From a virus (Duplodnaviria; Heunggongvirae; Uroviricota; Caudoviricetes): a stretch of 40,276 nucleotides of DNA. The position numbers and the translations under genes are program-made. The notes beneath the pieces were generated by a model. The model was not told the DNA's origin. It did not search any database and was given only the letters and a program-made list of their open reading frames with translations. This document shows positions 3,824-19,485 of this stretch, one piece after another (within the stretch, counting starts at the first letter, position 1; each line of letters opens with the position of its first letter). The stretch is taken from IMG/VR virus record IMGVR_UViG_2713896903_000005; one strand, given 5' to 3'.

Positions 3824-3845
3824 TTACTTTCTGAAAACTATAGTT

Positions 3846-4530: not shown

Positions 4531-4559
4531 TTGTTACCTTATGGGTGAATATTTATTAT
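4531..4559 (+). promoter_or_regulatory. putative rightward early promoter (PR-like) with overlapping operator
   Basis: -35 TTGTTA (4531..4536), 17-nt spacer, -10 TATTAT (4554..4559); one-mismatch site TTACCTTATGGGTGA (4534..4548) lies between the -35 and -10. Confidence 0.45.
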
Positions 4560-4584
4560 CTGAAATAAATATCAGGCAATAGCT

Positions 4585-4815
4585 ATGAGCGATAACGGAC
4601 ATTTCGATTTCAAAAAGCACTGGCTTGCACTTACTCCGGATGAGCGTGAAGCCTTCGCACAGGAAGCCGGAACGACGAGTCACTATATCCAGACTCACTT
4701 AACAGGTAAGCGCAAAATGCCAGGTAAGGTATTGATGAATGGGCTTTTTAAAGCCTGTAAAACAAGACAATGGCTGCGCTCAAAAGCAGAACTGGCATAC
4801 TTCTTCTACTCATGA
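4585..4815 (+). CDS. Cro-like small HTH regulator (YdaS/Cro-type)
   Basis: 76 aa, divergent from the repressor and first gene of the rightward operon; central helix-turn-helix-like region. Confidence 0.6.
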   Translation: MSDNGHFDFKKHWLALTPDEREAFAQEAGTTSHYIQTHLTGKRKMPGKVLMNGLFKACKTRQWLRSKAELAYFFYS

Positions 4816-4836
4816 TATCCAGCCACAAACCTCTGT

Positions 4837-4860
4837 AGACCGCCATCCGGCGGTCTTTTC
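4837..4860 (+). terminator. intrinsic terminator after cro (tR1-like)
   Basis: GACCGCC-ATCC-GGCGGTC hairpin followed by TTTT. Confidence 0.6.
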
Positions 4861-4965
4861 ATATCTATTCGTACCTCAAAGGTAATAAAAAACCAAATCT
4901 GGTTGATCTTTTTTTTGTGTCAGCACAAAATAACCGTAATCCCAATACTAATAACAGGGCTTACC

Positions 4966-5166
4966 ATGGAAATCATTACACGTATTGATGCCGCAAAGCG
5001 CGGGCTTAAACGCTACTACACCGGAAAACCATGTAAGCACGGACATGACAGTGAACGCTGGGTTTACAACGGACACTGTGTTGAGTGCACCATGGAATCA
5101 AACCGTCGCATCAGGGCAGAGATTAAGCAGATCATGATTAATTCCTCCCCACAACATTCAAGCTGA
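4966..5166 (+). CDS. small zinc-ribbon protein (66 aa), function unknown
   Basis: CKHGH...CVEC motif; internal ATG at 4966 chosen over the TTG at 4903; in the position of cII-like genes but without obvious HTH. Confidence 0.45.
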   Translation: MEIITRIDAAKRGLKRYYTGKPCKHGHDSERWVYNGHCVECTMESNRRIRAEIKQIMINSSPQHSS

Positions 5167-5181
5167 TAGCGGAGATTAATC

Positions 5182-5997
5182 ATGAGCAGACATGCAACAG
5201 ATTGGGCCTGGGAGACAGATCCAGGTAGCTCGTCATTAAAGCTCATACTGCTCTCGATGGCTGACAGAGCCGATGAATATAACCTCTGCTACCCCAGCAT
5301 AGAACGCCTCGTTAAAGACACTTGCCTGAATAAAAAAACCGTACAGGCCGGGCTTATATCGCTCATGAAAATGGGGCTTATTTCAGATACCGGAGAGAGA
5401 AAGGGAGCGACGAAAAGAGTGCGGGTTTTCTCTCTTAATATAACCAAAAACGGGAACATTAAAGGCAACCGGGAAGGGAGCAATGAACCCGAAAACGGTA
5501 ATGTTCCCGAAAACGGGAATATACCCAAAAACGGGATGTTGAATGATCCCAAAAACGGGATGTTGAATGATCCCAAAAACGGGATCCAGAACCAGTCATA
5601 TAACCAGTCATTTAACCAAGAGAGGGAGAGCAGGACAAAAACCGGGGATTCTGTGCCTCATGACCCCGGCGCAAACAACGCCGTGATGAATAACTTTGTT
5701 CCTCCTGGTGGGCCAGGGCAATTAGGCAAATTTGTCATGCATGAACAATGGCAGCCATCAGATGACTTTCTTCGGAAAAGCTCATTGCAGGGGATCTACC
5801 TGGACAGTCTGCCAACGGCACAGGAACTTGCAGAGTTCAGAATTTACTGGATGGCTGAGGGTAAGGCATACCATCAGGCACAGTGGGAGCAGAAGCTGGC
5901 AAGGCGGCTGCAGATTAGCAGACAGAAGCTATCAACATTACCTGATAACAACGTTCCGCACTGGAACAGCCCTGAAGCATGGGAGGATTTCTTGTGA
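5182..5997 (+). CDS. replication initiator (lambda O-like)
   Basis: 271 aa; HTH-like N-terminus; central peptide repeats (PENGNVPENGNIPKNGMLNDPKNGMLNDPKNG) encoded by DNA iterons; SD GGAG; immediately upstream of the P-like gene. Confidence 0.7.
   Translation: MSRHATDWAWETDPGSSSLKLILLSMADRADEYNLCYPSIERLVKDTCLNKKTVQAGLISLMKMGLISDTGERKGATKRVRVFSLNITKNGNIKGNREGSNEPENGNVPENGNIPKNGMLNDPKNGMLNDPKNGIQNQSYNQSFNQERESRTKTGDSVPHDPGANNAVMNNFVPPGGPGQLGKFVMHEQWQPSDDFLRKSSLQGIYLDSLPTAQELAEFRIYWMAEGKAYHQAQWEQKLARRLQISRQKLSTLPDNNVPHWNSPEAWEDFL
5488..5584. repeat. iteron array (putative ori) inside the O-like gene
   Basis: Five copies of CCC(G/A)AAAACGG(G/T)A starting at about 5488, 5506, 5524, 5548 and 5572 (spacing 18, 18, 24, 24 bp), followed by a more AT-rich stretch. 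Confidence 0.6.
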
Positions 5998-6779
5998 ACA
6001 ACGTTTTTACCGCGATACAAAACCGTGACGGAGAAGCCCTTTCTCGCATGTCAGGTTATGAGCATCAGTACACCAACAATGACAACGTGGTGAACATGTC
6101 AGCAGAGAGGCTTGTTGATGCCCTTTTCAAACAGCTGAAACAACTGTTTCCGGCGGCAGTGGTAACCAACCTGAAGACGCCAGAGCAGGAAGTTGCTGCA
6201 AAACAGCAGTGGATTGCTGCGTTTGCCGAAGGGGGGATCCGAACCCGTGAACAGGTTTCTGCTGGTATGCGCCACGCCCGCGCCAGTGAATCTCCGTTCT
6301 GGCCGTCGCCAGGGCAATTTATCAAGTGGTGCAAAGACAGCAAGATGGTTCTTGGCGTCACCATTGACGATGTGATGGCGGAGTTTCACCGGTACAGCAA
6401 GGAAAAAAGTTTATATCCTGGTGGTCCCGAAAGATTCCCGTGGCGGCATCCAGTTATGTACTGGGTCGTATGTGATACCCGCCGTGCAATGTATCAGCGC
6501 CAGCTTAGCGAGATTGAGGTTGAGAAACACGCGCGCAGGCTGCTCGATGATTGGGCGAAAAAGGTGGCTTCCGGACAGCAGATACCCGATCCGGTGATCA
6601 GCATACAAGCAAAGCCAGAACCCATGAGTACACCTCCGGACACAGGGAGAGACGTTTACCATCCACTAGGGCGAAGTTTCGGGTGCATGCCTAATGCCGC
6701 CACCCTGGGTGGAATAACACCGGCGCAGTGGCTGATGGAGGAATACAGGCGAGGAAAGGCGGCAGGATTTATCAAGTAA
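5979..6779 (+). CDS. replication protein P-like (DnaB helicase loader)
   Basis: Segment WIAAFAEGGIRTREQVSAGMRHARASESPFWPSPGQFIKWCKD parallels lambda P (WVLAFRENGITTMEQVNAGMRVARRQNRPFLPSPGQFVAWCRE); start 5979 versus GTG at 5994 unresolved. Confidence 0.75.
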   Translation: MGGFLVNNVFTAIQNRDGEALSRMSGYEHQYTNNDNVVNMSAERLVDALFKQLKQLFPAAVVTNLKTPEQEVAAKQQWIAAFAEGGIRTREQVSAGMRHARASESPFWPSPGQFIKWCKDSKMVLGVTIDDVMAEFHRYSKEKSLYPGGPERFPWRHPVMYWVVCDTRRAMYQRQLSEIEVEKHARRLLDDWAKKVASGQQIPDPVISIQAKPEPMSTPPDTGRDVYHPLGRSFGCMPNAATLGGITPAQWLMEEYRRGKAAGFIK

Positions 6780-6816
6780 TACCAGCGCGATAGCGCATTT
6801 TTTTACGCCCCAATAG

Positions 6817-6850: not shown

Positions 6851-6879
6851 TTGATTTCGTGTCTTATGTGGTTTTTAAT
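6851..6879 (+). promoter_or_regulatory. candidate promoter for the nin-like operon
   Basis: -35 TTGATT (6851..6856), 17-nt spacer, -10 TTTAAT (6874..6879); operator-like sites upstream and immediately downstream. Confidence 0.35.
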
Positions 6880-6896: not shown

Positions 6897-7241
6897 ATGA
6901 GAAAACAGATACAGGCTCTTGGTCGACTCAAAACAGGCCAGATGAACAAAACAGAATCTGCGTATTGCCAGCACCTTGAGCAGCGTAAACGTGCAGGGGA
7001 AATCGCCTGGTATCGATTCGAGGGTATCAAGCTACGGTTAGCTGACAACACGTTCTATACGCCCGATTTTGCTGTGATGCTCGCCACCGGCGAGATGGAA
7101 CTGCACGAAGTGAAAGGTTTCTGGACCGACGACGCCAGGGTGAAAACCAAAGTCGCCGCAGATCAGTATCCGTTCCGAATCATCGGGGTAACGGTTAAGC
7201 CAAAGAAAGCAGGTGGTGGCTGGAACATCGAAGAGTTCTGA
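6897..7241 (+). CDS. DUF1064-like phage protein (predicted PD-(D/E)XK-type nuclease)
   Basis: 114 aa; YTPDF...ELHEVKG pattern resembles D...E.K nuclease cores found in this phage family. Confidence 0.5.
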   Translation: MRKQIQALGRLKTGQMNKTESAYCQHLEQRKRAGEIAWYRFEGIKLRLADNTFYTPDFAVMLATGEMELHEVKGFWTDDARVKTKVAADQYPFRIIGVTVKPKKAGGGWNIEEF

Positions 7242-7302
7242 ATCGACGATCTTTTTAGTTATCAATGTAATCAATAAGTTATGTGGATAAGCGAGGGTAA
7301 AG

Positions 7303-7923
7303 ATGGAAAGTAATATCAAAGGGTTAGTTTCCGCCGGGCATGAGATGGCTTCGGAACTAAAAGCAGAATGTGGTGCCGTTGATATGCGCAGTGTGGCAAA
7401 GCTGATCAGCGATTTGGCAACGCAACTGGAAGTGCAACTGGTGCGTGCTAATGCGCTGGCCGAAGACCACCAGAGAGCGATTGAGTCAATTAAGCAGGCT
7501 GATGCAGCTGTTAAGTTGGCACACGAGAAGTTTTCGGCGCTGGCTGCGGAGAATGCGGCGCTGAAGTCTGCACACCCTCAGCAATTCGGTCAGAAAATGA
7601 TGGATGCATTGGTTGCATATGAGGAATGCCAGGACGATGTACCAGAAAGAGGAATGCTTAATGCGTTCTTCATCCTTCGTGACAGTGTTTGCATTGACAC
7701 TCCTGCTACTGGCGCTTTCCTGGCTGAAGTGCGGGCGCAGGGGGTGGATGCTGCTATAGAAGCTGCAAAAAATCTGGTGGCCCAAGAATATGAGTATAAG
7801 GATTTCAAAGCGGCGCAGAGTGATTGCTGTATGCACCTTGGTTCAGACCTGGTAGGGAAGGTTGAAATGACTGAGTGGTTAGTTGACTTTGCTGCCCAGC
7901 TTCGCAAAGGAGGCAACCAGTGA
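7303..7923 (+). CDS. hypothetical protein, possibly Ea22-like
   Basis: 206 aa, helix-rich; position and composition resemble ead/Ea22-like lambdoid accessory proteins; weak. Confidence 0.4.
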   Translation: MESNIKGLVSAGHEMASELKAECGAVDMRSVAKLISDLATQLEVQLVRANALAEDHQRAIESIKQADAAVKLAHEKFSALAAENAALKSAHPQQFGQKMMDALVAYEECQDDVPERGMLNAFFILRDSVCIDTPATGAFLAEVRAQGVDAAIEAAKNLVAQEYEYKDFKAAQSDCCMHLGSDLVGKVEMTEWLVDFAAQLRKGGNQ

Positions 7924-8726
7924 GCAAGATTGACTATCAGGCACTGCGTGAGGCGGCAGAGCGTGCAATTCCGGCAATGGAACGCCTGTTAATGTTGCCA
8001 GTTGATGATGATCTGATAAGCGAACAGGAACTTAAAGATAGCGGTGTTGATATTGATGCCCTCAACGCCTTCAAATTTCTGGCCGGACCAGAAACCGTGC
8101 TGGCACTACTGGATGAGATCAACGCATTAGAGGAAACGCGTATCAACGATGTTTGCCGTATTGCGGAACTAACAAAACAACTGGAGTTGGCAAAATCAAA
8201 ACTCAACGAGCAGCGTGAGTATTACGAAGGTGTTATCTCGGATGGGAGTAAGCGCATAGCAGAGTTGCAGACAAAATCTGCACCAGATTCATTTGGCATC
8301 ATCGGTGAAAATATTCGAACACAGGATAATCGAATAACGTCAGAACCTATGTTTTGTGTGTATCAAAAGCGCGAAATCGTTGTTGATTCTGATTATGACT
8401 ATGACCGGATTGTCTGGGTTGATGAAGATGGCAATGAAGCCAATAAACGCCAAAGTCGTCGTCTCGAACTACTTCACGAAAACTTTCGAGAGCCACCAGA
8501 AAAATGGCGGCGCGTTGCTGTGAAAGATATTGATGAATTCGTTACCTGCTGTTTCACCGAACAGGGTTGTAAAGACTACCTGGCAGCCAATGGTCACAAT
8601 CTTCGCTTGCCATTTATATATGTAAAAAACGGTTTCAGGAACGCTGAATATATCGGCATAAGAAACTGGCTTGCTGGCATTCGCATCAAAGGAGACGCAG
8701 GAGAGCAAAACGATGAAAAACCGTAA
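7920..8726 (+). CDS. ead/Ea22-like family protein
   Basis: 268 aa; N-terminus MSKIDYQALREAAERA typical of Ea22-like proteins; GTG start with strong SD (AAAGGAGG), GTGA overlap with the upstream gene. Confidence 0.5.
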   Translation: MSKIDYQALREAAERAIPAMERLLMLPVDDDLISEQELKDSGVDIDALNAFKFLAGPETVLALLDEINALEETRINDVCRIAELTKQLELAKSKLNEQREYYEGVISDGSKRIAELQTKSAPDSFGIIGENIRTQDNRITSEPMFCVYQKREIVVDSDYDYDRIVWVDEDGNEANKRQSRRLELLHENFREPPEKWRRVAVKDIDEFVTCCFTEQGCKDYLAANGHNLRLPFIYVKNGFRNAEYIGIRNWLAGIRIKGDAGEQNDEKP

Positions 8727-8889
8727 AGCAAAATTACTTCTTTTATCGCGTTCGACGGGGTACGAGAAGCTACCAATCAGCAATCACAAACGGGCGGTGA
8801 TCGGCATGTTTGGTAGGGTGGTATTCGCATTTAACTATAAAACCACCGCGTCGCGTAACAGACGAGAGAAGGGGTACGCAGTGCGATGA
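8713..8889 (+). CDS. small basic ORF (58 aa), hypothetical
   Basis: Begins MKNRKAK inside the 3' end of the Ea22-like gene; its first 25 bp recur as a direct repeat at the next ORF. Confidence 0.25.
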   Translation: MKNRKAKLLLLSRSTGYEKLPISNHKRAVIGMFGRVVFAFNYKTTASRNRREKGYAVR

Positions 8890-9071
8890 AAAACCGTAAA
8901 GCAAAAATTCTTTTGACCTGTAGAAATGCTCGCGGCGTCCAGCAATGGTTAAAACTCAGTAACCGCAGAATGGGGCTGTTCAAAAATACGGCTGATATTG
9001 TGATGTGTTCACTTAACAAGCCCAGCGCGGCGCAAAACCGCTGGAAAAACCACTTGCGCACTAAAGGATAG
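8886..9071 (+). CDS. small basic ORF (61 aa), hypothetical paralogue of the previous ORF
   Basis: Same MKNRKAK start; ATGA overlap with the previous ORF. Confidence 0.3.
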   Translation: MKNRKAKILLTCRNARGVQQWLKLSNRRMGLFKNTADIVMCSLNKPSAAQNRWKNHLRTKG

Positions 9072-9075
9072 TGAT

Positions 9076-9627
9076 ATGACCACTATAACCGATAAGAAAC
9101 AGTATCCAGGCGAGCAATATCTTAATGAGCTAATCACCAACATAGAGTTTGCTGCAAGGGCACCAGTTGAAGTCGTGAGAGCGATGGCAGCAGAGCTACA
9201 GAAGCGGCGCGAAGCTGATAGTGCAGAACCTGTAAGCCAAACTTACAAGTTGCCTCCCCTGTCATCCAACGAAGTAAACGACGCGGCATGGAAATTACAC
9301 AACATGCTGACTGAACACGGCCCGCTAAATGGGCGTCAGTTCAACAATCTGAAAGGTTGCTTCTATGAGGCATTAAAGGTCGCAATGCGCAACTCTCCGG
9401 TAACTCCGGATGGTTGGATAAGCTGTAGTGAGCGAATGCCGGATACCAAAATAGCCGTTCTTGTTGCTAGGGAGTTTGACAGGAAAGGTGACTGGCGAAT
9501 GAAATGGGCGACTTATATCCCGGGTCATCCTGACGCTAATGATGGGTGGCTAATTCCTGGGGCGTCGTGGAAACCGTCACACTGGATGCCGCTACCAGAA
9601 CCACCGCAAGAGGTTAACCGTGGCTAA
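9076..9627 (+). CDS. DUF551-domain phage protein
   Basis: C-terminal WISCSERMPD...W.P...SHWMPLPEPP pattern typical of DUF551; SD AAGGA. Confidence 0.65.
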   Translation: MTTITDKKQYPGEQYLNELITNIEFAARAPVEVVRAMAAELQKRREADSAEPVSQTYKLPPLSSNEVNDAAWKLHNMLTEHGPLNGRQFNNLKGCFYEALKVAMRNSPVTPDGWISCSERMPDTKIAVLVAREFDRKGDWRMKWATYIPGHPDANDGWLIPGASWKPSHWMPLPEPPQEVNRG

Positions 9628-9901
9628 CCTGCAGCTTGCCGTCAAAGGTGAATACTTCGACGCCATGATTCGCGGAGATAAAACGGAAGAGTATCGCCTG
9701 TGTAATGACTACTGGAATAAGCGAATCATGTTCCGGGAATATGACCGCCTGATTATCACAAAGGGATATCCGAAGCGCGACGACTTCAGTCGCAGAATTG
9801 ACGTCCCGTATAACGGATATGAAATAAAAACAATCACACATCCCCACTTCGGCGATAAACCGGTAAAGGTGTTCGCGGTAAAGGTAAATATTGATGGCTA
9901 A
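9620..9901 (+). CDS. hypothetical protein (possible ASCH/PUA-like fold)
   Basis: 93 aa; GTG start with SD AGAGGT; 8-nt overlap with the upstream gene. Confidence 0.4.
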   Translation: MANLQLAVKGEYFDAMIRGDKTEEYRLCNDYWNKRIMFREYDRLIITKGYPKRDDFSRRIDVPYNGYEIKTITHPHFGDKPVKVFAVKVNIDG

Positions 9902-10232
9902 ATCAGCAGCAGAGCGCAAAGCCGCTCAGAGAGCCAGACAAGCTGCATCTGGTGTGCGTAAGCTGGAAATTGTGCTTGATGCTCAGGAAATTGAAATGCT
10001 GGAGCGTAACTGTGCCACGCGTCGCCCCGGGCGTGCGCCTTACGAATTTGGTGAGTATATAGCGTTACTGATCCGCCAGGATGATGCACGCGTGCGCGGG
10101 CGTATAAAATCGATCAGCAGAAAACGTTGCGGTAAGTGCGGCGAGAGAGTTCCAGTTAATTCATGCCCGTGTAATGGTGACTCGCAATGCTGGGTGACTA
10201 AAGGCTGGCATGAAACGAAATTAATAGTGTGA
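9894..10232 (+). CDS. hypothetical protein with C-terminal Cys cluster
   Basis: ATG at 9894 (ORF-track TTG at 9891); CGKCG...CPC motif near the C-terminus. Confidence 0.4.
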   Translation: MAKSAAERKAAQRARQAASGVRKLEIVLDAQEIEMLERNCATRRPGRAPYEFGEYIALLIRQDDARVRGRIKSISRKRCGKCGERVPVNSCPCNGDSQCWVTKGWHETKLIV

Positions 10233-10240
10233 CATGTCAC
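10229..10240. repeat. 12-bp perfect palindrome GTGACATGTCAC (copy 1 of 3)
   Basis: Identical 12-mer also at 12680..12691 and 30539..30550; all three sit at gene or module junctions. Confidence 0.6.
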
Positions 10241-10249
10241 GAAGGTGTT

Positions 10250-10462
10250 ATGCCAAAAATACGCTACGACCTTGAAGATATGAGAGATAACTCAGCAAAT
10301 TTTCCGAAAGAGGTTAAATTTCTCATGCATAAGTATGGTTGCGCTAGGAGGGATATAGTTATCGACAGTCAGCACCCTTGCGGCGAGGATGTAATTTTCA
10401 TTCGCGGTAAATGGGAAGGGTATCTTGACGAGAGTTTTTACGATGAATTTGATGGACTTTGA
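10250..10462 (+). CDS. hypothetical small protein (70 aa)
   Basis: ATG at 10250 preceded by AAGGTG; the ORF-track GTG at 10229 lies inside the palindrome. Confidence 0.4.
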   Translation: MPKIRYDLEDMRDNSANFPKEVKFLMHKYGCARRDIVIDSQHPCGEDVIFIRGKWEGYLDESFYDEFDGL

Positions 10463-10467
10463 ATACT

Positions 10468-10493
10468 GCCGCCAACTATGGCGGCTTTATTTT
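10468..10493 (+). terminator. intrinsic terminator upstream of the packaging genes
   Basis: GCCGCC-AACTAT-GGCGGC hairpin followed by TTTATTTTG. Confidence 0.6.
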
Positions 10494-10504
10494 GCATGGT
10501 ACTA

Positions 10505-10519
10505 TTACCACAACGGTAA
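10505..10519. promoter_or_regulatory. operator-like palindrome TTACCACAACGGTAA
   Basis: Perfect site; an adjacent one-mismatch site at 10523..10537 ends at the terS start codon. Confidence 0.5.
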
Positions 10520-10536
10520 CTATTACCACGGTGGTT

Positions 10537-11133
10537 ATGATGCCTGCTGAACCTAAAACCTATAAACGCAAATCAACGCAATTTAAGCCACTAACAGCAA
10601 TGCAGGAGGCTTATTGCCAGTCATACATCAAAACGCCTGAAAACCAGACTCAGGCAGCGATTAACGCAGGATTCTCCCCAAATACAGCGGCAGTTAAAGC
10701 CAGTGTCATGATGCGCGATGAACGCATTCAAAAACGCATTGCCGAGTTGATGGAGGAGCGCAACAAACGAATGCGCGTCAGTGCTGATTACGTTCTCATG
10801 CGCCTGGTGGAGATCGACCAGATGGACGTGATCGACATCCTCAACGACGATGGGAGCCTTAAACCAATCCGTGAGTGGCCGAAAATCTGGCGCACTACGC
10901 TTAGTGGCTTTGATCTGTCATCGACCATCATGAACATGAACGAGGATTCGATAGAGACAATCCTCAAAAAAATTAAATGGCCTGACAAGGTGAAGAACCT
11001 TGAGCTGATTGGTAAGCATGTTGATGTCAACGCGTTCAAAGAACGCCTGGATGTTAATGTGAATGTGACAATTGCTGATCGCATAGCGGCAGCCAGGAAG
11101 CGACTCAAAGAACGTCAGGATGGTAATCAGTGA
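10537..11133 (+). CDS. terS: terminase small subunit
   Basis: Segment AYCQSYIKTPENQTQAAINAGFSPNTAAVKASVMMRDERIQKRI is typical of Terminase_2-type small subunits; ATG at 10537 chosen because the ORF-track TTG at 10459 would read through a terminator and operator sites. Confidence 0.7.
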   Translation: MMPAEPKTYKRKSTQFKPLTAMQEAYCQSYIKTPENQTQAAINAGFSPNTAAVKASVMMRDERIQKRIAELMEERNKRMRVSADYVLMRLVEIDQMDVIDILNDDGSLKPIREWPKIWRTTLSGFDLSSTIMNMNEDSIETILKKIKWPDKVKNLELIGKHVDVNAFKERLDVNVNVTIADRIAAARKRLKERQDGNQ

Positions 11134-12605
11134 CAGATACAGCGTTATCTCCTGAAGAGCAGTTGATCGAGGATATTGCAGGGTTCACTCACGATCCGCT
11201 TGGCTATGCCCTCTATGCGTTCCCGTGGGGGGAAGAGGGGACTGAACTGGCACATGCCACCGGCCCACGTCAGTGGCAGGCTGATGCGTTCCGAGAGATA
11301 CGTGATCACCTGCAGAATCCAGAGACGCGCTATCAGCCGCTTATGCTGGCACGCGCTTCTGGTCACGGTATTGGTAAATCCGCATTCATCTCAATGCTGA
11401 TCAACTGGGGCATGTCCACTTGCGAGGATTGTAAGGTCGTGGTGACCGCCAACACCGACAACCAGCTACGAACGAAGACCTGGCCGGAAATTATCAAGTG
11501 GTCGAACCTTGCTATCACGAAAGACTGGTTTACCTGTACCGCTACCGCGATGTACAGCAATGACCCTGGGCACGACAAGCGGTGGCGAGCTGACGCAATC
11601 CCCTGGTCTGAGCACAACACTGAGGCATTCGCCGGACTACACAACGAGCGAAAACGCATCATCGTGGTATTCGATGAAGCGTCGAACATTGCGGATCTGG
11701 TGTGGGAAGTTGCTGAGGGTGCGCTTACGGACGAAGACACTGAGATTATCTGGGTGGCGTTCGGAAACCCTACACGTAACACCGGACGTTTCCGCGAATG
11801 TTTCCGCAAATATAAACACCGCTGGAAAACTGCGCAGATTGACAGCCGGACGGTGGAAGGCACTAACAAACAGCAGTTGCAGAAATGGGTTGATGACTAC
11901 GGGGAAGACAGCGACTTCGTTAAAATCCGTGTGCGCGGCATATTCCCTGATGCATCTGAATTGCAGTTTATCCCTACCGGTCTTACTGATGAGGCAATGA
12001 AACGGGTGGTAACCGCTGCGCAGGTGGCGCATGCTCCGGTGATAATCGGTGTTGACCCGGCATATTCAGGCGTTGATGACGCGGTGATATACCTGCGGCA
12101 GGGGCTACACAGTAAGGTGCTGTGGACTGGCAACAAGACTACCGACGATCTGATTATGGCGAAGCGTATCGCTGACTTTGAAGACCAGTATCAGGCTGAC
12201 GCAGTGTTCATCGACTTCGGTTACGGAACCGGTTTGAAGTCAATCGGTGATGGCTGGGGACGTACATGGCAACTTGTTCCGTTCGGCGGTGCGTCCACTG
12301 ACCCGCAGATGCTTAACAAGCGTGGGGAGATGTTCAACTCATGTAAGACATGGCTGAGGCTGGGCGGCATGCTGGATGACCAGGAAACTGCAGACGACCT
12401 GTCGGCGGCAGAGTACAAAGTTCGTGTGGACGGTAAAATCGTTATCGAACCGAAGGAAGATATCAAAGAGCGTCTTGGGCGTTCGCCGGGTAAAGGCGAT
12501 GCGCTACTGCTGACGTTTGCTTTCCCGGTGTCGAAGCGCCTGCGACTTCCCGGGCAGCAGAACCAGCAAGGAAAGGCCATTACAGATTACGATCCCTATG
12601 CTTAA
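11130..12605 (+). CDS. terL: terminase large subunit
   Basis: 491 aa; Walker A-like ARASGHGIGKS and Walker B-like IIVVFDEAS; GTG start with SD overlapping the terS stop. Confidence 0.85.
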   Translation: MTDTALSPEEQLIEDIAGFTHDPLGYALYAFPWGEEGTELAHATGPRQWQADAFREIRDHLQNPETRYQPLMLARASGHGIGKSAFISMLINWGMSTCEDCKVVVTANTDNQLRTKTWPEIIKWSNLAITKDWFTCTATAMYSNDPGHDKRWRADAIPWSEHNTEAFAGLHNERKRIIVVFDEASNIADLVWEVAEGALTDEDTEIIWVAFGNPTRNTGRFRECFRKYKHRWKTAQIDSRTVEGTNKQQLQKWVDDYGEDSDFVKIRVRGIFPDASELQFIPTGLTDEAMKRVVTAAQVAHAPVIIGVDPAYSGVDDAVIYLRQGLHSKVLWTGNKTTDDLIMAKRIADFEDQYQADAVFIDFGYGTGLKSIGDGWGRTWQLVPFGGASTDPQMLNKRGEMFNSCKTWLRLGGMLDDQETADDLSAAEYKVRVDGKIVIEPKEDIKERLGRSPGKGDALLLTFAFPVSKRLRLPGQQNQQGKAITDYDPYA

Positions 12606-12679
12606 TCCGCTGGAGGGGATAATGCTGCTGATATCCTCTGATGAGGGTAAAACAAAGCCAGCTCATAGGCTGGCTGTTT

Positions 12680-12691
12680 GTGACATGTCAC
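12680..12691. repeat. 12-bp perfect palindrome GTGACATGTCAC (copy 2 of 3)
   Basis: Between the convergent terL and gp49-like genes, immediately after hairpin AGCCAGC-N6-GCTGGCT (12656..12675). Confidence 0.6.
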
Positions 12692-12695
12692 GGTG

Positions 12696-13076
12696 TTATT
12701 GCTCGCTTAACTTCTGCTTCAGCAAGTAACCTTCGAGCATCCAGATTTTGTTTACAGCATTCTGCCGGGCAATCTTCCGACCAATTTCTGCATCAAAGTT
12801 TTCCGGGCTTGCACAGGCACTCTCTCCGGTGACGGTGAAGCCATTCTTCAGCACCAGTACGCAGAAAGTGAGCAACTTCAATGGTGATAAATCACGATCG
12901 CCTTCTTCTGGTTTCTCTCTGCCACAATATTCGTTGCTGGAAATGGCACCATTTCGTCCATCATAAGCAGTAAAGTAATGCTCGCTTTTAATCACGTCTT
13001 CGATGTGCTGAGGAGTGATTCGCGGGGCTGTTTTGCCTTTCTCAACGATTTCTTTTTCGATTTGCTGGTCGTTCAT
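12696..13076 (-). CDS. Gp49-like (Phage_gp49_66 family) protein, moron
   Basis: 126 aa; C-terminal VTGESACASPENFDAEIGRKIARQNAVNKIWMLEGY pattern typical of the gp49/gene-66 family; opposite orientation to the packaging and head genes. Confidence 0.55.
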   Translation of the reverse strand: MNDQQIEKEIVEKGKTAPRITPQHIEDVIKSEHYFTAYDGRNGAISSNEYCGREKPEEGDRDLSPLKLLTFCVLVLKNGFTVTGESACASPENFDAEIGRKIARQNAVNKIWMLEGYLLKQKLSEQ

Positions 13077-13085
13077 AATCTCACC

Positions 13086-13111
13086 TTAAAAAAATGCCCG
13101 GCGAACCGGGC
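13086..13111 (-). terminator. terminator-like hairpin between the tRNA and the gp49-like gene
   Basis: Minus strand: GCCCGG-TTCG-CCGGGC followed by ATTTTTTT, only about 10 nt before the gp49-like SD and start; a second hairpin plus T-run lies at about 13190..13231. Confidence 0.45.
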
Positions 13112-13274
13112 GAACTGGAAGCAATGAGTTATGCCTTCCGTGGCTGTACTGGTTTACAGCATGAAGTCATCGCAATGGCGTCCTGCTGTAAAAAGGGCGG
13201 TGATAGTCCTTCAAGGGAAACCATCACCGCCAATCACCTGGAACTTCTGGTATTACGGTCCTTAGGCGTGATTC

Positions 13275-13351
13275 TGGCGTGGCATGCAGGATTCGAACCT
13301 GCGACCAACCGCTTAGAAGGCGGTTGCTCTGTCCAGCTGAGCTAATGCCAC
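13275..13351 (-). tRNA. tRNA-Arg (anticodon UCU)
   Basis: 77-nt cloverleaf read by hand on the minus strand: acceptor GTGGCAT/ATGCCAC, D-stem GCTC/GAGC, anticodon stem ACCGC/GCGGT with loop CTTCTAA, T-stem GCAGG/CCTGC with loop TTCGAAT, discriminator G, encoded CCA. Confidence 0.85.
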
Positions 13352-13673
13352 AACGCTGAGAGCACTTAGCCTGTTAAGGCGCCACACTTTGTCGCGGCTC
13401 CATAAATGCTCTCATCGTTGTACCATCGTCTCTTCCGAGGCGTCACACCGAATCGCCGGGATGGTGAATCCCCGTGCGCGGAATAAAACCGCTCGACTTG
13501 CACATTCCGGCTACCTGGTTCGTTTGCCCGAGCAAGGGAGGGTTCCCCTTAAACGTATCCAGACCGCTATCGGCGCATGTGCCATACGCCGTACTGCTCA
13601 AAATAAAAGCTCACTCCACCTGTTCAATTTAACGACAAGCCAGTCAGGTTAGTAACCGGAATGAACTCTTTGG

Positions 13674-13688
13674 TTACCCGAAAGGTAA
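13674..13688. promoter_or_regulatory. operator-like palindrome TTACCCGAAAGGTAA
   Basis: Perfect site in the 430-bp noncoding region upstream of the portal/head operon. Confidence 0.5.
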
Positions 13689-13778
13689 TAATTTGTGCGT
13701 TAAATGTCAACTATCTACGATAAATAAATCATATATGGTTAAATTGGTAATAATTTAATTGCGTACGGAGTCATTGAT

Positions 13779-13985
13779 ATGTGCATGGGTAGCTCACCAT
13801 CAGTGCCTGCAACACCAGAAGTTCAGGCAGCACCACAGGAGCAGGATGCCGCCGTTGTTGATGCCCGCGACGAAGAAACTCGTCGCCGTCGCGCTGCTGC
13901 TGGTCGTAGTTCTACGCTGCTTACCGGTTCTCAGGGCGACACATCAACCGCTAATACCAGCGGTAAAACGCTGCTTGGTCAGTAA
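13779..13985 (+). CDS. hypothetical small protein (68 aa), first gene of the head operon
   Basis: ATG with SD GGAG; acidic, Ala/Arg-rich; no recognisable domain. Confidence 0.4.
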   Translation: MCMGSSPSVPATPEVQAAPQEQDAAVVDARDEETRRRRAAAGRSSTLLTGSQGDTSTANTSGKTLLGQ

Positions 13986-13999
13986 CCGGAGTCATTGAA

Positions 14000-15679
14000 A
14001 TGGCGGAAACAACTAAAGAGCGATTGAACAAACAGTTCGCACAACTTGAAAGCGAGCGTCAGTCGTTCGAGCCGCACTGGCGCGAGTTGAGTGATTACAT
14101 CAACCCGCGTGGTTCCCGCTTTCTGACTTCTGAGGTCAACCGTAACGATCGACGCAATACACGCATTATTGATTCGACCGGGACTATGGCGGCGCGTACT
14201 CTCGCCAGCGGCATGATGTCTGGCATCACAAGCCCCGCGCGTCCGTGGTTTCGCCTGGCTACGCCAGATCCTGAAATGATGGATTATGGCCCTGTTAAGT
14301 TGTGGCTTGAGGCGGTGCAGAACCGCATGAACGATATGTTCAATAAGTCGAATCTCTATCAGTCGCTGCCGCAGTTATACGGAAGCCTCGGCACATACAG
14401 CACTGGCGCAATGGCGGTGCTGGAGGATGACGAGGACATCATTCGTACAATGCCATTCCCGATAGGAAGTTACTACCTGGCTAACTCACCTCGTGGCAGT
14501 GTGGACACCTGTTTTCGTAAGTTCTCTATGACTGTTCGTCAGCTTGTTCAGGAATTCGGACTAAATAACGTCAGCGAATCCGTAAAAAGCATGTGGGAAA
14601 GCGGCACCTACGAGAAGTGGATTGAAGTGATGCATTCGGTTTACCCGAACATTGACCGCGATACATCGAAGCTGGATAGCAAGAACAAGCCATTCAAATC
14701 GGTTTATTACGAGGTTGGTGGCGATAACGACAAGTTGTTGCGTGAGTCCGGATTCGATGAGTTTCCAATTATGGCTCCGCGCTGGGAAGTTAACGGCGAA
14801 GATGTTTATGGATCATCATGCCCGGGTATGCTGGCGCTTGGACCTGTTAAGGCATTGCAGCTTCTCCAGAAGCGCAAGTCGCAGTTGATTGATAAAGCCA
14901 CCAATCCGCCGATGGTTGCTCCGACTTCCCTCAAGAATCAGCGTGCCTCCCTTCTTCCTGGCGACATCACGTATATCGATCAGATTACTGGTCAGGATGG
15001 TTTCAGGCCTGCTTATCTGGTTAACCCCAGTACAGCAGATTTGGTGGCAGACATTCAGGACACTCGTCAAATCATTAACAGCGCCTACTTTGTCGATCTG
15101 TTCATGATGTTGCAGAACATCAACACCCGCTCGATGCCTGTTGAAGCGGTGATCGAAATGAAAGAAGAAAAACTTCTGATGTTGGGGCCGGTTCTGGAGC
15201 GTCTGAACGACGAATGTCTTAATCCTCTCATTGACCGCGCTTTCTCGATGATGGTGCGTAAAAACATGCTGCCGCCACCGCCTGACGCGATGGAAGGTAT
15301 GCCCCTGAAGGTCGAATACATTTCCGTCATGGCTCAGGCGCAGAAGTCTATCGGCCTGTCCAGTCTGGCATCCACGGTCAACTTCATTGGTCAACTTGCG
15401 CAAGCGAAACCAGAAGCTCTCGACAAACTCAACGTTGATCAGGCGATCGATGCATTCGCTGATATGTCCGGAGTGTCTCCAACCGTCATTGTTCCGCAGG
15501 AACAGGTTGAGCAGGCTCGCCAGCAACGGGCACAGCAACAACAGCAGCAACAAATGATGGCGATGGGGATGGCGGCGGCACAGGGTGCCAAGACGCTAAG
15601 CGAAGCTAAAACTTCGGATCCGAGTGTTTTGTCAGCTATGGCGAATGCAGTTAGTGGTCAGGGTGGGCAATCACAATGA
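14000..15679 (+). CDS. portal protein
   Basis: 559 aa, downstream of the terminase genes and upstream of scaffold and capsid genes; Gln/Ala-rich C-terminal tail; size and position typical of portal proteins. Confidence 0.7.
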   Translation: MAETTKERLNKQFAQLESERQSFEPHWRELSDYINPRGSRFLTSEVNRNDRRNTRIIDSTGTMAARTLASGMMSGITSPARPWFRLATPDPEMMDYGPVKLWLEAVQNRMNDMFNKSNLYQSLPQLYGSLGTYSTGAMAVLEDDEDIIRTMPFPIGSYYLANSPRGSVDTCFRKFSMTVRQLVQEFGLNNVSESVKSMWESGTYEKWIEVMHSVYPNIDRDTSKLDSKNKPFKSVYYEVGGDNDKLLRESGFDEFPIMAPRWEVNGEDVYGSSCPGMLALGPVKALQLLQKRKSQLIDKATNPPMVAPTSLKNQRASLLPGDITYIDQITGQDGFRPAYLVNPSTADLVADIQDTRQIINSAYFVDLFMMLQNINTRSMPVEAVIEMKEEKLLMLGPVLERLNDECLNPLIDRAFSMMVRKNMLPPPPDAMEGMPLKVEYISVMAQAQKSIGLSSLASTVNFIGQLAQAKPEALDKLNVDQAIDAFADMSGVSPTVIVPQEQVEQARQQRAQQQQQQQMMAMGMAAAQGAKTLSEAKTSDPSVLSAMANAVSGQGGQSQ

Positions 15680-15972
15680 CAGATTACGAAGACGATCAAC
15701 TGAAAGAAGAAAACGCCCGTAAGCAACGTGACATGGCACAGCGTGAAATTGATGACATTCGCTTTGTCATGAGCAGTGAACAGGGGCGTCGCGTTGTCTG
15801 GTCTGTGCTGGAGAAAGGCCGGGTGTTTTCCGCTATCTCTCCGATTGATGCTATGGCAATGGCATTTAATGAGGGGCAACGCAATCTGGCGCTGGAACTG
15901 TTTCAGCGCGTTATGGCGCATTGCCCTGAACAGTATTTGAAGATGGCCAAAGAGGCCAGTGAACAGGAGTGA
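15676..15972 (+). CDS. hypothetical head-assembly protein
   Basis: 98 aa; ATGA overlap with the portal stop; SD GGGTGGG. Confidence 0.45.
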   Translation: MTDYEDDQLKEENARKQRDMAQREIDDIRFVMSSEQGRRVVWSVLEKGRVFSAISPIDAMAMAFNEGQRNLALELFQRVMAHCPEQYLKMAKEASEQE

Positions 15973-15974
15973 TC

Positions 15975-16670
15975 ATGAATTTATTTGAGCGTTTGCTGTA
16001 TCGCCGTCTTTGCAATGAGCAACCAGTCGATGGTGGAGCAGCTCCGGCTGCGTCAGAACCATCAGCGCCTGCAGGTGATAACCCTGCTCCAGTTGGTGAT
16101 CCATCACAACCGGAAGGTGATAAGCCACAACCTGTTGCTGATGGCGATAAACCTGCTGATGACAAAAAGCCTGAAAACGATAAGCAGGATGAAAAAAAGG
16201 ACGGCGATAAACCAGAGGGTGCGCCTGAGAAGTACGAGTTTCAGGCTGCCGAAGGCGTAGAGCTGGATACAGAAGCGTTGAAGGAATTCGAGCCGGTGGC
16301 GCGAGAACTTAACCTGACCAACGAGCAAGCGCAAAAGCTGGTTGATGCTTATCCGAAGATTCTGGCAGGTGTTCAGCAGCGCCAGGCAGAAGCCTGGCAG
16401 AAAACAACCGAGCAGTGGGCTGCGGATGTAAAAGCTGACAAAGAAATCGGTGGCGACAAGTTGATTTCTAACCTTAGCGCCGCACAGCGTGCGCTTGACC
16501 AGTTCGGGACACCTGAACTCAAAGAATATCTGAACACCACCGGGCTGGGTAATCACCCTGATCTGGTCAAAACGTTCGTGAAAATCGGAAAGGCGATGTC
16601 TGAAGATGGCATGGTCACCGGTGGTAATGAAGGCCAGCGTAGTGCGGCCGAAGTGCTCTATGGCAAATAA
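15975..16670 (+). CDS. putative scaffolding protein
   Basis: Pro/Asp/Lys-rich acidic N-terminal half and helical C-terminal half, immediately upstream of the capsid gene; ATG at 15975 with SD AGGAG (ORF-track GTG at 15969). Confidence 0.5.
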   Translation: MNLFERLLYRRLCNEQPVDGGAAPAASEPSAPAGDNPAPVGDPSQPEGDKPQPVADGDKPADDKKPENDKQDEKKDGDKPEGAPEKYEFQAAEGVELDTEALKEFEPVARELNLTNEQAQKLVDAYPKILAGVQQRQAEAWQKTTEQWAADVKADKEIGGDKLISNLSAAQRALDQFGTPELKEYLNTTGLGNHPDLVKTFVKIGKAMSEDGMVTGGNEGQRSAAEVLYGK

Positions 16671-16678
16671 GAGAGGAA

Positions 16679-17671
16679 ATGACAATGGCTGTTAAAGGCT
16701 TAACTGCGCTAACGCTGGCTGACTGGGGTAAGCGCGTCGATCCAAACGGGAAAGTCGATAAGATTATCGAGCTTCTCGGTCAAACAAACCCGATCCTTCA
16801 GGATATGCCTTTTGTCGAAGGGAACCTTCCTACCGGACACCGAACCACCATTCGTTCTGGTTTACCTTCAGCTACCTGGCGTTTGCTGAACTATGGCGTA
16901 CAGCCAAGCAAATCAACCACAGTGCAGGTAACCGATTCCGTTGGCATGCTGGAAACCTATGCTGAAGTCGATAAGTCACTGGCTGATCTGAACGGTAATA
17001 CCGCCGAATTCCGCCTGTCTGAAGACCGCGCATTTATTGAAGCGATGAATCAGCAGATGGCGCAGACACTGTTTTATGGTGATTCCAGCGTTAACCCTCA
17101 GCAGTTTATGGGACTGTCCTCCCGCTATTCCAGCCTGTCTGCGGGTAATGCTCAGAACATCATTGATGCTGGTGGCACGGGTACAGATAACACCTCAATC
17201 TGGTTAGTGGTGTGGGGCGAAAACACCGTGCATGGCATCTTCCCGAAAGGGCAGAAGGCTGGCATCCAGATGGAAGATAAAGGCCAGGTGACACTGGAAG
17301 ATGCGAATGGCGGCAAGTACGAAGGCTACCGTACCCATTACAAATGGGACAACGGACTTGCTCTGCGTGACTGGCGTTATGTTGTTCGCATTGCAAACAT
17401 CGATGTCAGCAATCTTTCAGAACCTTCCTCTGCCGCAAATATTGCGAAGTTGATGGTTAAAGCACTGCATCGCATTCCAAATCGTGGCATGGGTCGCCCG
17501 GTGTTCTACATGAACCGCACTGTAGGCCAGGCTCTTGATCTGCAATCTCTGGAGAAAACATCTCTGGCGATCAGCGTAAAAGAGACAGAAGGCGAGTGGT
17601 GGACTTCATTCCGTGGTGTACCAATCCGTGAAACTGATGCGCTTCTGGAAACAGAAGCCCGCGTGGTGTAA
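16679..17671 (+). CDS. major capsid protein
   Basis: 330 aa directly after the scaffold-like gene; size and position typical; start may be the second ATG at 16685. Confidence 0.65.
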   Translation: MTMAVKGLTALTLADWGKRVDPNGKVDKIIELLGQTNPILQDMPFVEGNLPTGHRTTIRSGLPSATWRLLNYGVQPSKSTTVQVTDSVGMLETYAEVDKSLADLNGNTAEFRLSEDRAFIEAMNQQMAQTLFYGDSSVNPQQFMGLSSRYSSLSAGNAQNIIDAGGTGTDNTSIWLVVWGENTVHGIFPKGQKAGIQMEDKGQVTLEDANGGKYEGYRTHYKWDNGLALRDWRYVVRIANIDVSNLSEPSSAANIAKLMVKALHRIPNRGMGRPVFYMNRTVGQALDLQSLEKTSLAISVKETEGEWWTSFRGVPIRETDALLETEARVV

Positions 17672-17722
17672 CGCCTGTTATTAACCTGTGGGTCGTAACA
17701 GACCCACTAATGGAGAAAGAAG

Positions 17723-18160
17723 ATGATAACCGACAAACTGTTGATGTTCTCCGAAGCTCAGGCGGTTACGAATACCGCGGCTTCTACTGACGTAATCGAT
17801 CTCGGTCCAATTGACGGAAAACGTCGTGATATCGGCGTTGGTTACCCGCTTGAGTTTTGGGCGCTGGTTAACACAGCCGCCGCGGCAAGCGGTGATGCAA
17901 CTGTAAACATCCAGTTGCAGACGAGTGAGAATAACAGCTCATGGACCACTATTTATGATAGTGGCGCACTGGCAAAGACCGCCCTGACAGCAGGTAAACG
18001 AGTTGTTTCTGCAAAGGTGCCTGCCGGTGTTCAGCGATATCTGCGTGTTAACTACTCCGTCGCAACTGGCCCACTGACGGCTGGCGAATTCACTGCTGGT
18101 ATCAGTCTTGATGTTGATGCCAATACGCCGTATCCGATCCGCTCAAAAGTAACTGGTTAA
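17723..18160 (+). CDS. hypothetical capsid-associated protein (possible decoration protein)
   Basis: 145 aa after the capsid gene; SD GGAGA; beta-rich composition. Confidence 0.4.
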   Translation: MITDKLLMFSEAQAVTNTAASTDVIDLGPIDGKRRDIGVGYPLEFWALVNTAAAASGDATVNIQLQTSENNSSWTTIYDSGALAKTALTAGKRVVSAKVPAGVQRYLRVNYSVATGPLTAGEFTAGISLDVDANTPYPIRSKVTG

Positions 18161-18170
18161 GGTGATATCG

Positions 18171-18506
18171 ATGTCAGGTGAGAAACCAAGATACCGCGTT
18201 CTGCGCCTCTCTCATATCCATAACACTCTGTGGCCGGAGGGGGCAGAAATCGAATACGAAGGTGAGCCTGGTAGCGCACTGGAACCTGTTAACGATGCAG
18301 CCAGACAGGCAAAAGCAAAAGTTGCAGGAAAGGTGTCAATGGCAGCAACCAGCACCAAAATCATCAACGATGTGTCAGATGATGGTGAACTGGATAAGCT
18401 CCGTGAAGAGTACGAATTGCTCTTTAACGAGAAGCCACACCATAACGCTAAAGCCGAAACGCTCCGCGAGAAGATCGCAGATAAGCGTAAAGAACTAGGC
18501 GTGTAA
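18171..18506 (+). CDS. hypothetical protein
   Basis: ATG at 18171 with SD AAGGTGA (ORF-track GTG at 18162); followed by a strong terminator. Confidence 0.4.
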   Translation: MSGEKPRYRVLRLSHIHNTLWPEGAEIEYEGEPGSALEPVNDAARQAKAKVAGKVSMAATSTKIINDVSDDGELDKLREEYELLFNEKPHHNAKAETLREKIADKRKELGV

Positions 18507-18522
18507 GCCTCGCGAATCCGAC

Positions 18523-18544
18523 AAGGGGCTTCGGCCCCTTTATT
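18523..18544 (+). terminator. intrinsic terminator
   Basis: AAGGGGC-TTCG-GCCCCTT hairpin followed by TTATTG. Confidence 0.65.
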
Positions 18545-18556
18545 GCAGGAGTGTAT

Positions 18557-18880
18557 ATGGAACTCGTAAACCTCAAAACCGGCACTGACAGCTACCAGGA
18601 TGAGAGCGGAGAAACCAGAACTCGCGATGAATATCCGTGGGGGCTGTGCATCACTCTTAATAACGACACATTGAATAAGCTGAAGGCGCAACCTCAGGGC
18701 GTCGGAACAGAAGTGATGATAACTGCAAAGGCTGTTATTCGAGGCCTGTCTGCCAGAGAAACTGACGATGGTGTTAATCGCAGCGCCGATCTGCAGATCA
18801 CTGATATGGCAATCGCTCCTGTTTCCGGTGATGTAGAAAAATCAGCGGCTGAAACCCTCTACGGTAACGGGGGTGAGTGA
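18557..18880 (+). CDS. hypothetical protein
   Basis: ATG at 18557 with SD GCAGGAG; no recognisable domain. Confidence 0.4.
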   Translation: MELVNLKTGTDSYQDESGETRTRDEYPWGLCITLNNDTLNKLKAQPQGVGTEVMITAKAVIRGLSARETDDGVNRSADLQITDMAIAPVSGDVEKSAAETLYGNGGE

Positions 18881-19485
18881 TGGCCTCTGTAGTAGAGATC
18901 TGTAATCGTGCGCTGTCCAATATTGGCAACAGCCGCAGCATTAACAGCCTGACGGAAGCCAGCAAGGAAGCGGGGGAGTGTTCGCTGCACTTTGAGGCCT
19001 GCCGTGATGCTGTGCTTTCTGATTTTGACTGGAACTTTGCTACCAAACGCGTGGCGCTTGCAGATACGAACAATCCACCGCCTGACTGGGAATATGCGTA
19101 CCAGTACCCGTCAGATTGTCTGCGCATTACTGAAATTATGCTTCCTGGTGTACGCAATCCAACAGCAGCAATGCGCGTTCAGTACGAAGTTGGTGCAGAC
19201 ACCAACGGAACAGGAAAGTTGATCTACACAGACCAGCCGCAGGCATGGCTCAAGTATGTATCTCGCGTTTCAGATGTGAACATGTTTGATGCCATTTTTA
19301 TGGAGGCGTTGGCCTGGCGTCTTGCGGCAGCTATTAACATGGCGCTGACTGGGAATGCAGACCTCGGTACGTTTGCCCTCAATATGTACAATCGCGTGAT
19401 TCTTAGTGCTGGCTCGCATAGCCAGAATGAATCACAGGAACCACAGCCACCGGTTGACGAGTTTACCATTGCGAGGTTGTCCTGA
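18880..19485 (+). CDS. tail tubular protein A-like (T7 gp11-type adaptor), tentative
   Basis: About 200 aa directly upstream of an about 820-aa protein, mirroring the T7 gp11/gp12 size pair; N-terminal region loosely resembles gp11-type proteins. Confidence 0.45.
   Translation: MASVVEICNRALSNIGNSRSINSLTEASKEAGECSLHFEACRDAVLSDFDWNFATKRVALADTNNPPPDWEYAYQYPSDCLRITEIMLPGVRNPTAAMRVQYEVGADTNGTGKLIYTDQPQAWLKYVSRVSDVNMFDAIFMEALAWRLAAAINMALTGNADLGTFALNMYNRVILSAGSHSQNESQEPQPPVDEFTIARLS

Follow-up and report, generated by a model that had tools for sequence, protein, structure and literature searches.

Candidate repressor-controlled, terminator-bounded late units in a phiV10/epsilon15-like prophage without recognizable Q or N antiterminators

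Introduction

The late promoters of phage P1 depend on the activator Lpa, lack a -35 element and carry a conserved upstream box. In Gram-positive phages, activators of the RinA/ArpU type are small regulators encoded immediately upstream of terS, the promoter of which is regulated (PMC3152322). In Salmonella phage SPC32H, a tetramer of the repressor Rep binds palindromic operators and is taken apart by the antirepressor Ant (as summarised in PMC9638917). In the database record of Salmonella phage epsilon15 (NC_004775.2), a 17-bp dyad is annotated as a 'repressor' binding site before terS (12-27), gp3 (2931-2947), the tailspike gene (19895-19911) and the resolvase gene, and at OL; these sites are predictions of the record, not experiments. 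Here we analyze the IMG/VR virus record IMGVR_UViG_2713896903_000005, a stretch of 40,276 nucleotides (nt) that we refer to as the window, and in particular its positions 10463-13778, which form the junction between the early and late genes of a phage of the phiV10/epsilon15 type.

By megablast of positions 9000-14000, the window shares ~97% DNA identity with phiV10, the O157 typing phages 9 and 10, TL-2011b and related Uetakevirus podophages, and ~80% with epsilon15, Tyrion and relatives from Klebsiella and Enterobacter. We classify it, from its sequence, as the prophage of a phiV10/epsilon15-like (Uetakevirus) temperate podophage of the E. coli phiV10 type. The account of its transcription that we consider the likelier is that this phage, which appears to lack both Q and N, is organized as terminator-bounded units, each with its own putative promoter and an operator for the immunity repressor; terS would be derepressed, and the head, tailspike and lysis units would need an extra factor.

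Results

Copies of the immunity operator lie before early and late genes

The initial annotation of the window had described two operator-like palindromes abutting the start of terS. Dyads are indeed present there, but the register proposed, GGTA-N-TACC, turned out to be the inner halves of adjacent ATTACC and GGTAAT half-sites. The enriched unit is a 17-bp dyad, ATTACC-N5-GGTAAT, which matches the window 17 times at up to two mismatches, compared to 1.04 matches expected (standard deviation 1.0; maximum of 5 in 100 shuffles). Except for two weak intragenic matches, all lie in intergenic control regions, of which at least nine are occupied, and the operators are found at homologous positions in epsilon15 and Tyrion. 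PL and PR are both flanked by these palindromic sites, with variants in addition to those given here:

Starts 3711 and 3773: operators at PL
Start 4485: operator at PR
4870-4886: operator just past the cro terminator, with two mismatches, at the same place in Tyrion and epsilon15
Starts 6816 and 6878: operators before the resolvase gene
10504-10520: terS operator copy 1, ATTACCACAACGGTAAC, over the -10 and start-site region; the epsilon15 counterpart is annotated 'protein_bind repressor'
10522-10538: terS operator copy 2, ATTACCACGGTGGTTAT, weaker, over the Shine-Dalgarno sequence and ATG (10537 or 10540)
13673-13689: operator upstream of the head operon; the epsilon15 counterpart, at 2931-2947, is annotated as a repressor site
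Starts 31536, 31801, 32868 and 32961: operators in the ant region
34081-34097: perfect operator between ant and the tailspike promoter
37021-37037: operator upstream of the lysis cassette promoter

The operator-like sites at terS and before the head operon are copies of the immunity operator seen at PL and PR, and Rep would be expected to bind the late copies as well. A noncoding stretch of about 430 bp with a palindrome had also been described before the head operon. Positions 13352-13778 (427 bp) do hold no protein gene and do carry the operator at 13673-13689, but a tRNA-Arg gene, which the description had omitted, abuts this stretch. The gap also contains a long inverted repeat (13345-13426), 24 nt in length and lying over the 5' flank of the tRNA-Arg(TCT) gene; a terminator with a 14-bp stem lies 3' of that gene (13196-13231, minus strand). 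By eye, epsilon15 seems to share a block at ~13560-13640, where its annotation includes an RNase III site.

The window encodes both members of a repressor-antirepressor pair, with a candidate site for LexA at the antirepressor gene:

3846-4430, minus strand: immunity repressor Rep of the SPC32H type (phmmer against PDB chain 5D50_A, 'Repressor', and phrog_8)
33748-34005, minus strand: SPC32H-type antirepressor Ant, 85 amino acids, divergent from the tailspike gene (phmmer against 5D50_E, E = 1.4e-46)
34025-34044: LexA box 20 nt upstream of ant, with one mismatch to the consensus; 0.01 expected by chance

The match of Rep to 5D50_A is full length, covering residues 1-190 (phmmer, E = 3.5e-42). 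A second antirepressor locus, resembling immI of P1, is also present: the RNAs isrK (67 bits) and C4 (66 bits) are found by Rfam at 32648-32832 on the minus strand, directly upstream of a gene (31889-32614, minus strand) for a 241-amino-acid BRO-type antirepressor, which is extra to the small LexA-controlled Ant.

A strong terminator and a conserved promoter candidate precede terS

We drew the gene order from open reading frames (ORFs) and profile searches. At the junction it is as follows:

10540-11133, plus strand: terS (Terminase_2; Pfam PF03592, E = 1e-29), with its ATG at 10537 or 10540
11130-12605, plus strand: terL (annotated homologs in phiV10 and epsilon15)
12656-12675, both strands: bidirectional terminator between terL and the convergent minus-strand gene (folding; annotated in phiV10)
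12696-13076, minus strand: gene of the Phage_gp49_66 family, gp66-like (Pfam PF13876, E = 3.4e-35)
13275-13351, minus strand: tRNA-Arg (TCT) (ARAGORN and Rfam RF00005, 71.7 bits)
13779-13985, plus strand: first gene of the head operon, homolog of epsilon15 gp3 (phrog_831)

A strong terminator directly 5' of terS had been proposed, and both folding and conservation bear it out. It lies at 10468-10493 on the plus strand, ends the rightward early operon, and consists of the hairpin GCCGCCAACTATGGCGGC (10468-10485) followed by UUUAUUUUG. It folds at -16.2 kcal/mol (z = -5.0), with none of 200 shuffles folding equally well, and its U tract has seven U in eight positions. The hairpin is also found in Tyrion and in epsilon15, where it is annotated as rho-independent, and 34 of 46 distinct terS upstream regions have kept it.

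An extended -10 promoter candidate, TGGTACTAT (10497-10505, plus strand), which we call PterS, overlaps terS operator copy 1. The pattern TGnTAnTAT followed by the operator was found in 46/46 distinct terS upstream regions of related contigs, with variation limited to the two 'n' positions, and it is retained in all 12 sequences without the terminator hairpin, including lineages that have a umuD-like gene upstream. At PL (TTGACA-17-AATTAT) the operator starts inside the -10 element, and this junction, AATTAT/TACC, recurs at PterS (TGG-TACTAT/TACC) and at the resolvase promoter (TTTAAT/TACC). Conservation of the promoter pattern together with the operator argues for an extended -10 promoter that the repressor controls directly, and derepression is the most likely switch for terS-terL. 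We read terS-terL as an autonomous unit: the early operon would end at the terminator, and PterS would restart transcription once Rep is removed.

A common -35-less promoter-like element before the head, tailspike and lysis units

The head, tailspike and lysis units are each preceded by a common box, CATAT(A/G)(T/C)G(G/A)TT, followed after 7 nt by TAATAA, TAATAG or TATAAT, with no -35 element:

13730-13754, plus strand: head-operon promoter region, with box CATATATGGTT, 7 nt and TAATAAT, and no -35 element
34126-34136: box of the tailspike promoter, with TAATAG at 34144-34149
37067-37077: box of the lysis promoter, with TATAAT at 37085-37090

The head block is nearly invariant over ~70 distinct relatives. 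Neither CCATATATGG nor CATATRYGGTT was enriched genome-wide at two mismatches (17 matches against 16 expected, and 41 against 34 expected), so what supports the box is its conserved position. Boxes of the CATATRYGGTT type also occur within the resolvase promoter, whose spacer holds one at 6863-6873, and in the PL spacer of Tyrion.

The operator lies ~45-46 nt upstream of the box at the tailspike and lysis units and 57 nt upstream at the head operon. Because this geometry is not that of classical repression, an extra activator is likely for these three units, which would probably need an additional early phage factor. The initial annotation had suggested that late expression relies on derepression or activation at these sites. 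Derepression fits these copies of the immunity operator, most clearly at terS, where a conserved promoter overlaps the operator in a PL-like geometry. The head operator also has a TTGACA on the minus strand, 15 nt upstream of it (13710-13705).

Candidate restart elements follow terminators on the rightward arm

The genes between PR and terS are read rightward:

4585-4815, plus strand: cro-like gene (phrog_35)
5182-6779, plus strand: replication genes
6897-10462, plus strand: nin-like genes

The tR1-like terminator after cro (4837-4856, plus strand) does form a hairpin (-15.0 kcal/mol, z = -5.0), but its U tract, UUUUCAUAUCU, is weak. Past this terminator and its operator lies TTGATC-17-CAAAAT (4903-4931, plus strand), a candidate re-initiation promoter; the element, with a spacer of 16 or 17 nt, is conserved in the window, epsilon15 and Tyrion. 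After the replication genes come, in order, a short terminator (6784-6804), an operator and a promoter-like element. The last of these, TTGATT-17-TTTAAT before 6897, is conserved in the three phages, and its -10 runs into the operator just 5' of the resolvase ATG. Given this repeated pattern of terminator, operator and promoter, antitermination is not required at the terminators of cro and of the replication genes. The earlier inference that this terminator implies antitermination or read-through was not upheld, as re-initiation from operators with promoter-like elements suffices for the layout.

The terL-head and head-tail/tailspike boundaries are formed by convergent genes with bidirectional terminators. 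At the first of these, a GC-rich terminator hairpin with a U7 tract (13096-13111, minus strand) ends 20 nt 5' of the ATG of the gp49_66-family gene. Because the gap between terminator and ATG leaves no room for a promoter, this gene can be expressed only by read-through from the tRNA-Arg unit.

No antiterminator family was matched among the ORFs scanned

All candidate genes outside 14000-29864 were scanned against PHROGs and/or Pfam, with uneven coverage: the small ORFs of the right operon were run against both libraries, and ten ORFs also against NCBIfam, but the genes for terminase, replication, recombination, tailspike and lysis against no more than one of the two. The contiguous large ORFs of 14000-29864 lay outside the scan and were assigned as structural virion genes by annotation in two complete relatives. 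Within this scope no ORF matched Q, N or any other antiterminator family, nor the Lpa family of late-promoter activators in PHROGs. The absence of a Q homolog between the replication genes and terS and of an N-like Arg-rich protein, both noted initially, is thereby borne out: profile searches of the small early ORFs for Q and N families matched nothing, and the first gene of the PL operon (3238-3552), a member of phrog_856 with no assigned function, is not Arg-rich and has no match to an N family. For epsilon15 and Tyrion, whose genomes are complete, zero antiterminators are annotated.

RNA elements were searched with Rfam. At gathering thresholds, the matches in the window were tRNA, isrK and C4. 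Nothing credible was found near PL, cro, terS or the head leader even at permissive thresholds, and a permissive scan of 3400-5250 and 10200-13800 for RNAs like put of HK022, of which Rfam's coverage is uncertain, gave sub-threshold chance matches.

A small regulator and its presumed palindromic site at operon boundaries

The last early gene common to these phages encodes a predicted DNA-binding protein, and a short palindrome lies over its end and at two later boundaries:

9894-10232, plus strand: last early gene, for a 112-amino-acid ribbon-helix-helix (RHH)-like protein with a C-terminal Cys (zinc) cluster (phrog_536, 'transcriptional regulator'; epsilon15 gp49/N15 gp46 family)
10229-10240: perfect 12-bp palindrome GTGACATGTCAC, copy 1, over the stop codon of the regulator gene
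12680-12691: copy 2, just past the terL terminator; same place in epsilon15 (2142) and Tyrion (2702)
30539-30550: copy 3, over the stop codon of the last head-tail gene and followed by a terminator; same in epsilon15 (19517) and Tyrion (20377)
30552-30575, plus strand: terminator closing the head-tail unit (folding; counterpart annotated in epsilon15)

A fourth palindrome with one mismatch lies at 15728-15739, and epsilon15 and Tyrion each have three copies, at corresponding places. The 112-amino-acid protein had no sequence match in Pfam, NCBIfam or the PDB, and a structure search of BFVD gave nothing useful. A small gene (10250-10462, plus strand, phrog_1541) is inserted between palindrome copy 1 and the terminator before terS; it is missing there in TL-2011b, epsilon15 and Tyrion, and other relatives have a LexA-boxed umuD-like gene at this position instead.

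Among distinct loci with a homolog of the regulator, 59/69 have GTGAC-N2-GTCAC within -12 to +15 nt of its stop codon, including ZF40, N15 and lambdoid contigs, and 35 more copies occur elsewhere in 627 kb, compared to 0.6 expected. The pair of regulator and palindrome is seen across Uetakevirus, lambdoid, ZF40, N15, Yersinia P2-like and Vibrio phages. Because the half-sites are constant, the center is variable and the palindrome barely folds as RNA, we take it to be a protein's DNA site, most likely that of the 112-amino-acid protein. An RNA hairpin or nut-like site was considered and rejected in favor of a DNA site, as the palindrome folds at -2.9 kcal/mol (z = -0.4) without stem covariation. 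A sigma-70 promoter, or a class I or II activator site for PterS, was likewise rejected, as the distance to the -10 varies (55, 73 or 259 nt). A literature search with the motif strings returned nothing relevant.

This pair could instead be the switch itself. The protein at its GTGACATGTCAC palindromes might be an unrecognized antiterminator, a functional substitute for Q that lets early transcripts enter terS and beyond, and several observations lean that way. Uetakeviruses always have this gene in last place before terS, the motif is strongly associated with its stop codon, all three exact copies in the window sit between a stop codon and an intrinsic terminator, and two Vibrio phages have palindromes directly ahead of terS (at 20 nt) and also upstream of the holin gene in the lysis region. 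However, ZF40, N15 and lambdoid loci encode members of the phrog_536 family alongside Q-like proteins; for this reason we do not see the family as simply taking the place of Q and dropped that candidate. On the plus strand, moreover, copy 2 lies past the terminator, and on the minus strand it would favor read-through into antisense terL; the fold, apparently RHH-like, would be of a DNA-binding repressor type; and PterS is conserved even in relatives without the terminator. The window contains no Q-type promoter of the lambda kind, that is, a constitutive promoter with a Q-binding element and a close terminator. A promoter-like arrangement 5' of the terminator, GTGACA-17-TAAATT, is confined to epsilon15 and Tyrion and is seen neither in the window or phiV10-type relatives nor at palindrome copies 2 and 3. 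We consider the antiterminator alternative unlikely. The regulator-palindrome pair may have a boundary or roadblock role, or may control read-through at the adjacent terminators. The broader proposition, that the epsilon15 gp49/N15 gp46 family comprises widespread uncharacterized regulators that act at GTGAC-N2-GTCAC sites between a stop codon and an intrinsic terminator, that gate the crossing of operon boundaries by RNA polymerase, and that provide the early-to-late switch in Q-less Uetakeviruses, is speculative, and we would give it a low probability.

Other genes of the window

The remaining units are as follows:

Leftward early operon, minus strand: MT-A70 methylase, PerC-like activator, AlpA/Xis, RecT and exonuclease
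13779 to ~30542, plus strand: head-tail operon
Between the head-tail operon and the tailspike gene, minus strand: accessory and antirepressor block
At 34201, plus strand: tailspike gene
37131-38944: lysis cassette

The left end of the window (1-315) opens inside a DUF1382 gene, the region 3' of the lysis cassette (38945-40276) holds minus-strand accessory genes (DUF5384, glycine-zipper lipoprotein), and the window has no integrase gene. Two conserved small proteins are candidate regulators: a PerC/ANR-like activator of the leftward operon (835-1134, minus strand) and a zinc-finger protein (phrog_1081; 4966-5166, plus strand) encoded by the first gene past the cro terminator. The C-terminus of a 242-amino-acid protein encoded at 32997-33725 matches the endonuclease VII PHROG (phrog_1035). 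Within the replication initiator gene, a tandem 20-nt repeat (5532-5575), TGGGATCATTCAACATCCCG in minus-strand reading, encodes a repeated PKNGMLND peptide and probably represents origin iterons.

Discussion

In the account that we favor, transcription would be split into short units between intrinsic terminators, each restarting from its own promoter with a Rep operator. In a lysogen, Rep would silence every unit directly, those for packaging, head, tailspike and lysis included. Upon DNA damage, LexA would be cleaved and Ant made, and Ant would take Rep apart, releasing all units. At terS-terL, the terminator at 10468-10493 would stop the early operon and TGGTACTAT would restart transcription, with Rep bound at 10504-10538 covering the -10, the start site and the leader. 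The head, tailspike and lysis units would use -35-less promoters, CATATRYGGTT followed after 7 nt by TAnnAn, with an operator 45-57 nt upstream and probably an extra early factor, which would supply the delay that Q gives in lambda.

Several points weigh against this account. PterS lacks a -35 element, and the -10 of the head promoter is ambiguous, being either TTAAAT or TAATAA. The operator center at the head, tailspike and lysis units is at about -67 to -80 from the likely start, which is not a repression position; Rep there may loop, or the operator may serve divergent leftward promoters (that of ant, and that of the tRNA and gp66-like unit). The terminator 20 nt before the ATG of the gp66-like gene indicates that some read-through does occur in the phage. 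Finally, if derepression were all that is involved, terS would not be 'late' when the phage infects a cell free of Rep.

It is also conceivable that there is no dedicated mechanism, that transcripts from PR pass leaky terminators passively as genome copies build up, and that the late operators are redundant roadblocks. The poor U tract of the cro-proximal terminator would allow this, as would the gp66-like gene, which must rely on transcription crossing its upstream terminator. But the terminator before terS is strong, convergent genes and bidirectional terminators make rightward read-through unlikely at the terL-head and head-tail/tailspike boundaries, and the promoter-like blocks before the head, tailspike and lysis units are nearly invariant; we therefore find this explanation very unlikely. 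Equally improbable is a one-protein switch in which the Cro-like protein (4585-4815) binds the late operators, in addition to Rep, during lytic growth and, placed at about -67 to -80, activates the -35-less promoters and at the same time represses PL and PR: the operator-to-box spacing is similar at the tailspike and lysis units and is 57 nt at the head unit, the protein matches the repressor family phrog_35 and Cro proteins commonly share operators with their repressor, but the proposal is purely inferential, and the head operator fits a leftward promoter (the minus-strand TTGACA) and the tailspike operator the ant promoter equally well.

If our favored account of terminator-bounded, repressor-fronted units is right, prophages of E. 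coli and Salmonella that form a common group can organize their late genes outside the lambda Q/N paradigm, with one repressor, removed by a LexA-controlled antirepressor, fronting every terminator-insulated unit, packaging and lysis included. This should be useful for prophage annotation and for engineering phiV10/epsilon15 reporter phages, and it raises two testable questions: which factor fires the -35-less promoters, and what the regulator-palindrome pair does at operon boundaries in several lineages.

The layout can be set against five described systems. As at lambda Q and pR'-tR', the last early gene of the window encodes a regulator and is followed by a putative protein-binding DNA site, a terminator and the late genes; unlike lambda, the window has no Q family and no conserved promoter at the palindrome, and its regulator is RHH-like and of a family that lives alongside true Q. 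With the RinA/ArpU systems the window shares a small regulator just upstream of terS and a regulated promoter before it, but there is no sequence relationship, the terS promoter of the window overlaps an immunity operator, and the presumed site of the regulator is at its own stop codon. P1 resembles the window in having one repressor with scattered operators, a C4 antisense RNA and isrK upstream of an antirepressor gene, a PacA/PacB-like terminase, and late promoters of the kind described above; it differs in that Rep of the window is no homolog of C1, no Lpa-like family was found in the ORFs scanned, and the operators of the window are symmetric. SPC32H (PDB 5D50) offers clear homologs of Rep and Ant and a LexA box at ant; the window has operators over at least nine intergenic regions. 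Epsilon15 has the same gene order, a terminator before terS and no annotated antiterminator, and differs by its ~80% DNA identity in the late genes and by lacking the extra gene at 10250-10462, the tRNA-Arg and the second, P1-like antirepressor locus. The repressor sites and terminators of this layout are already annotated in NC_004775.2, and the finding is thus real but largely known; the new by-products are the regulator-palindrome pair and the -35-less promoter box common to the head, tailspike and lysis units.

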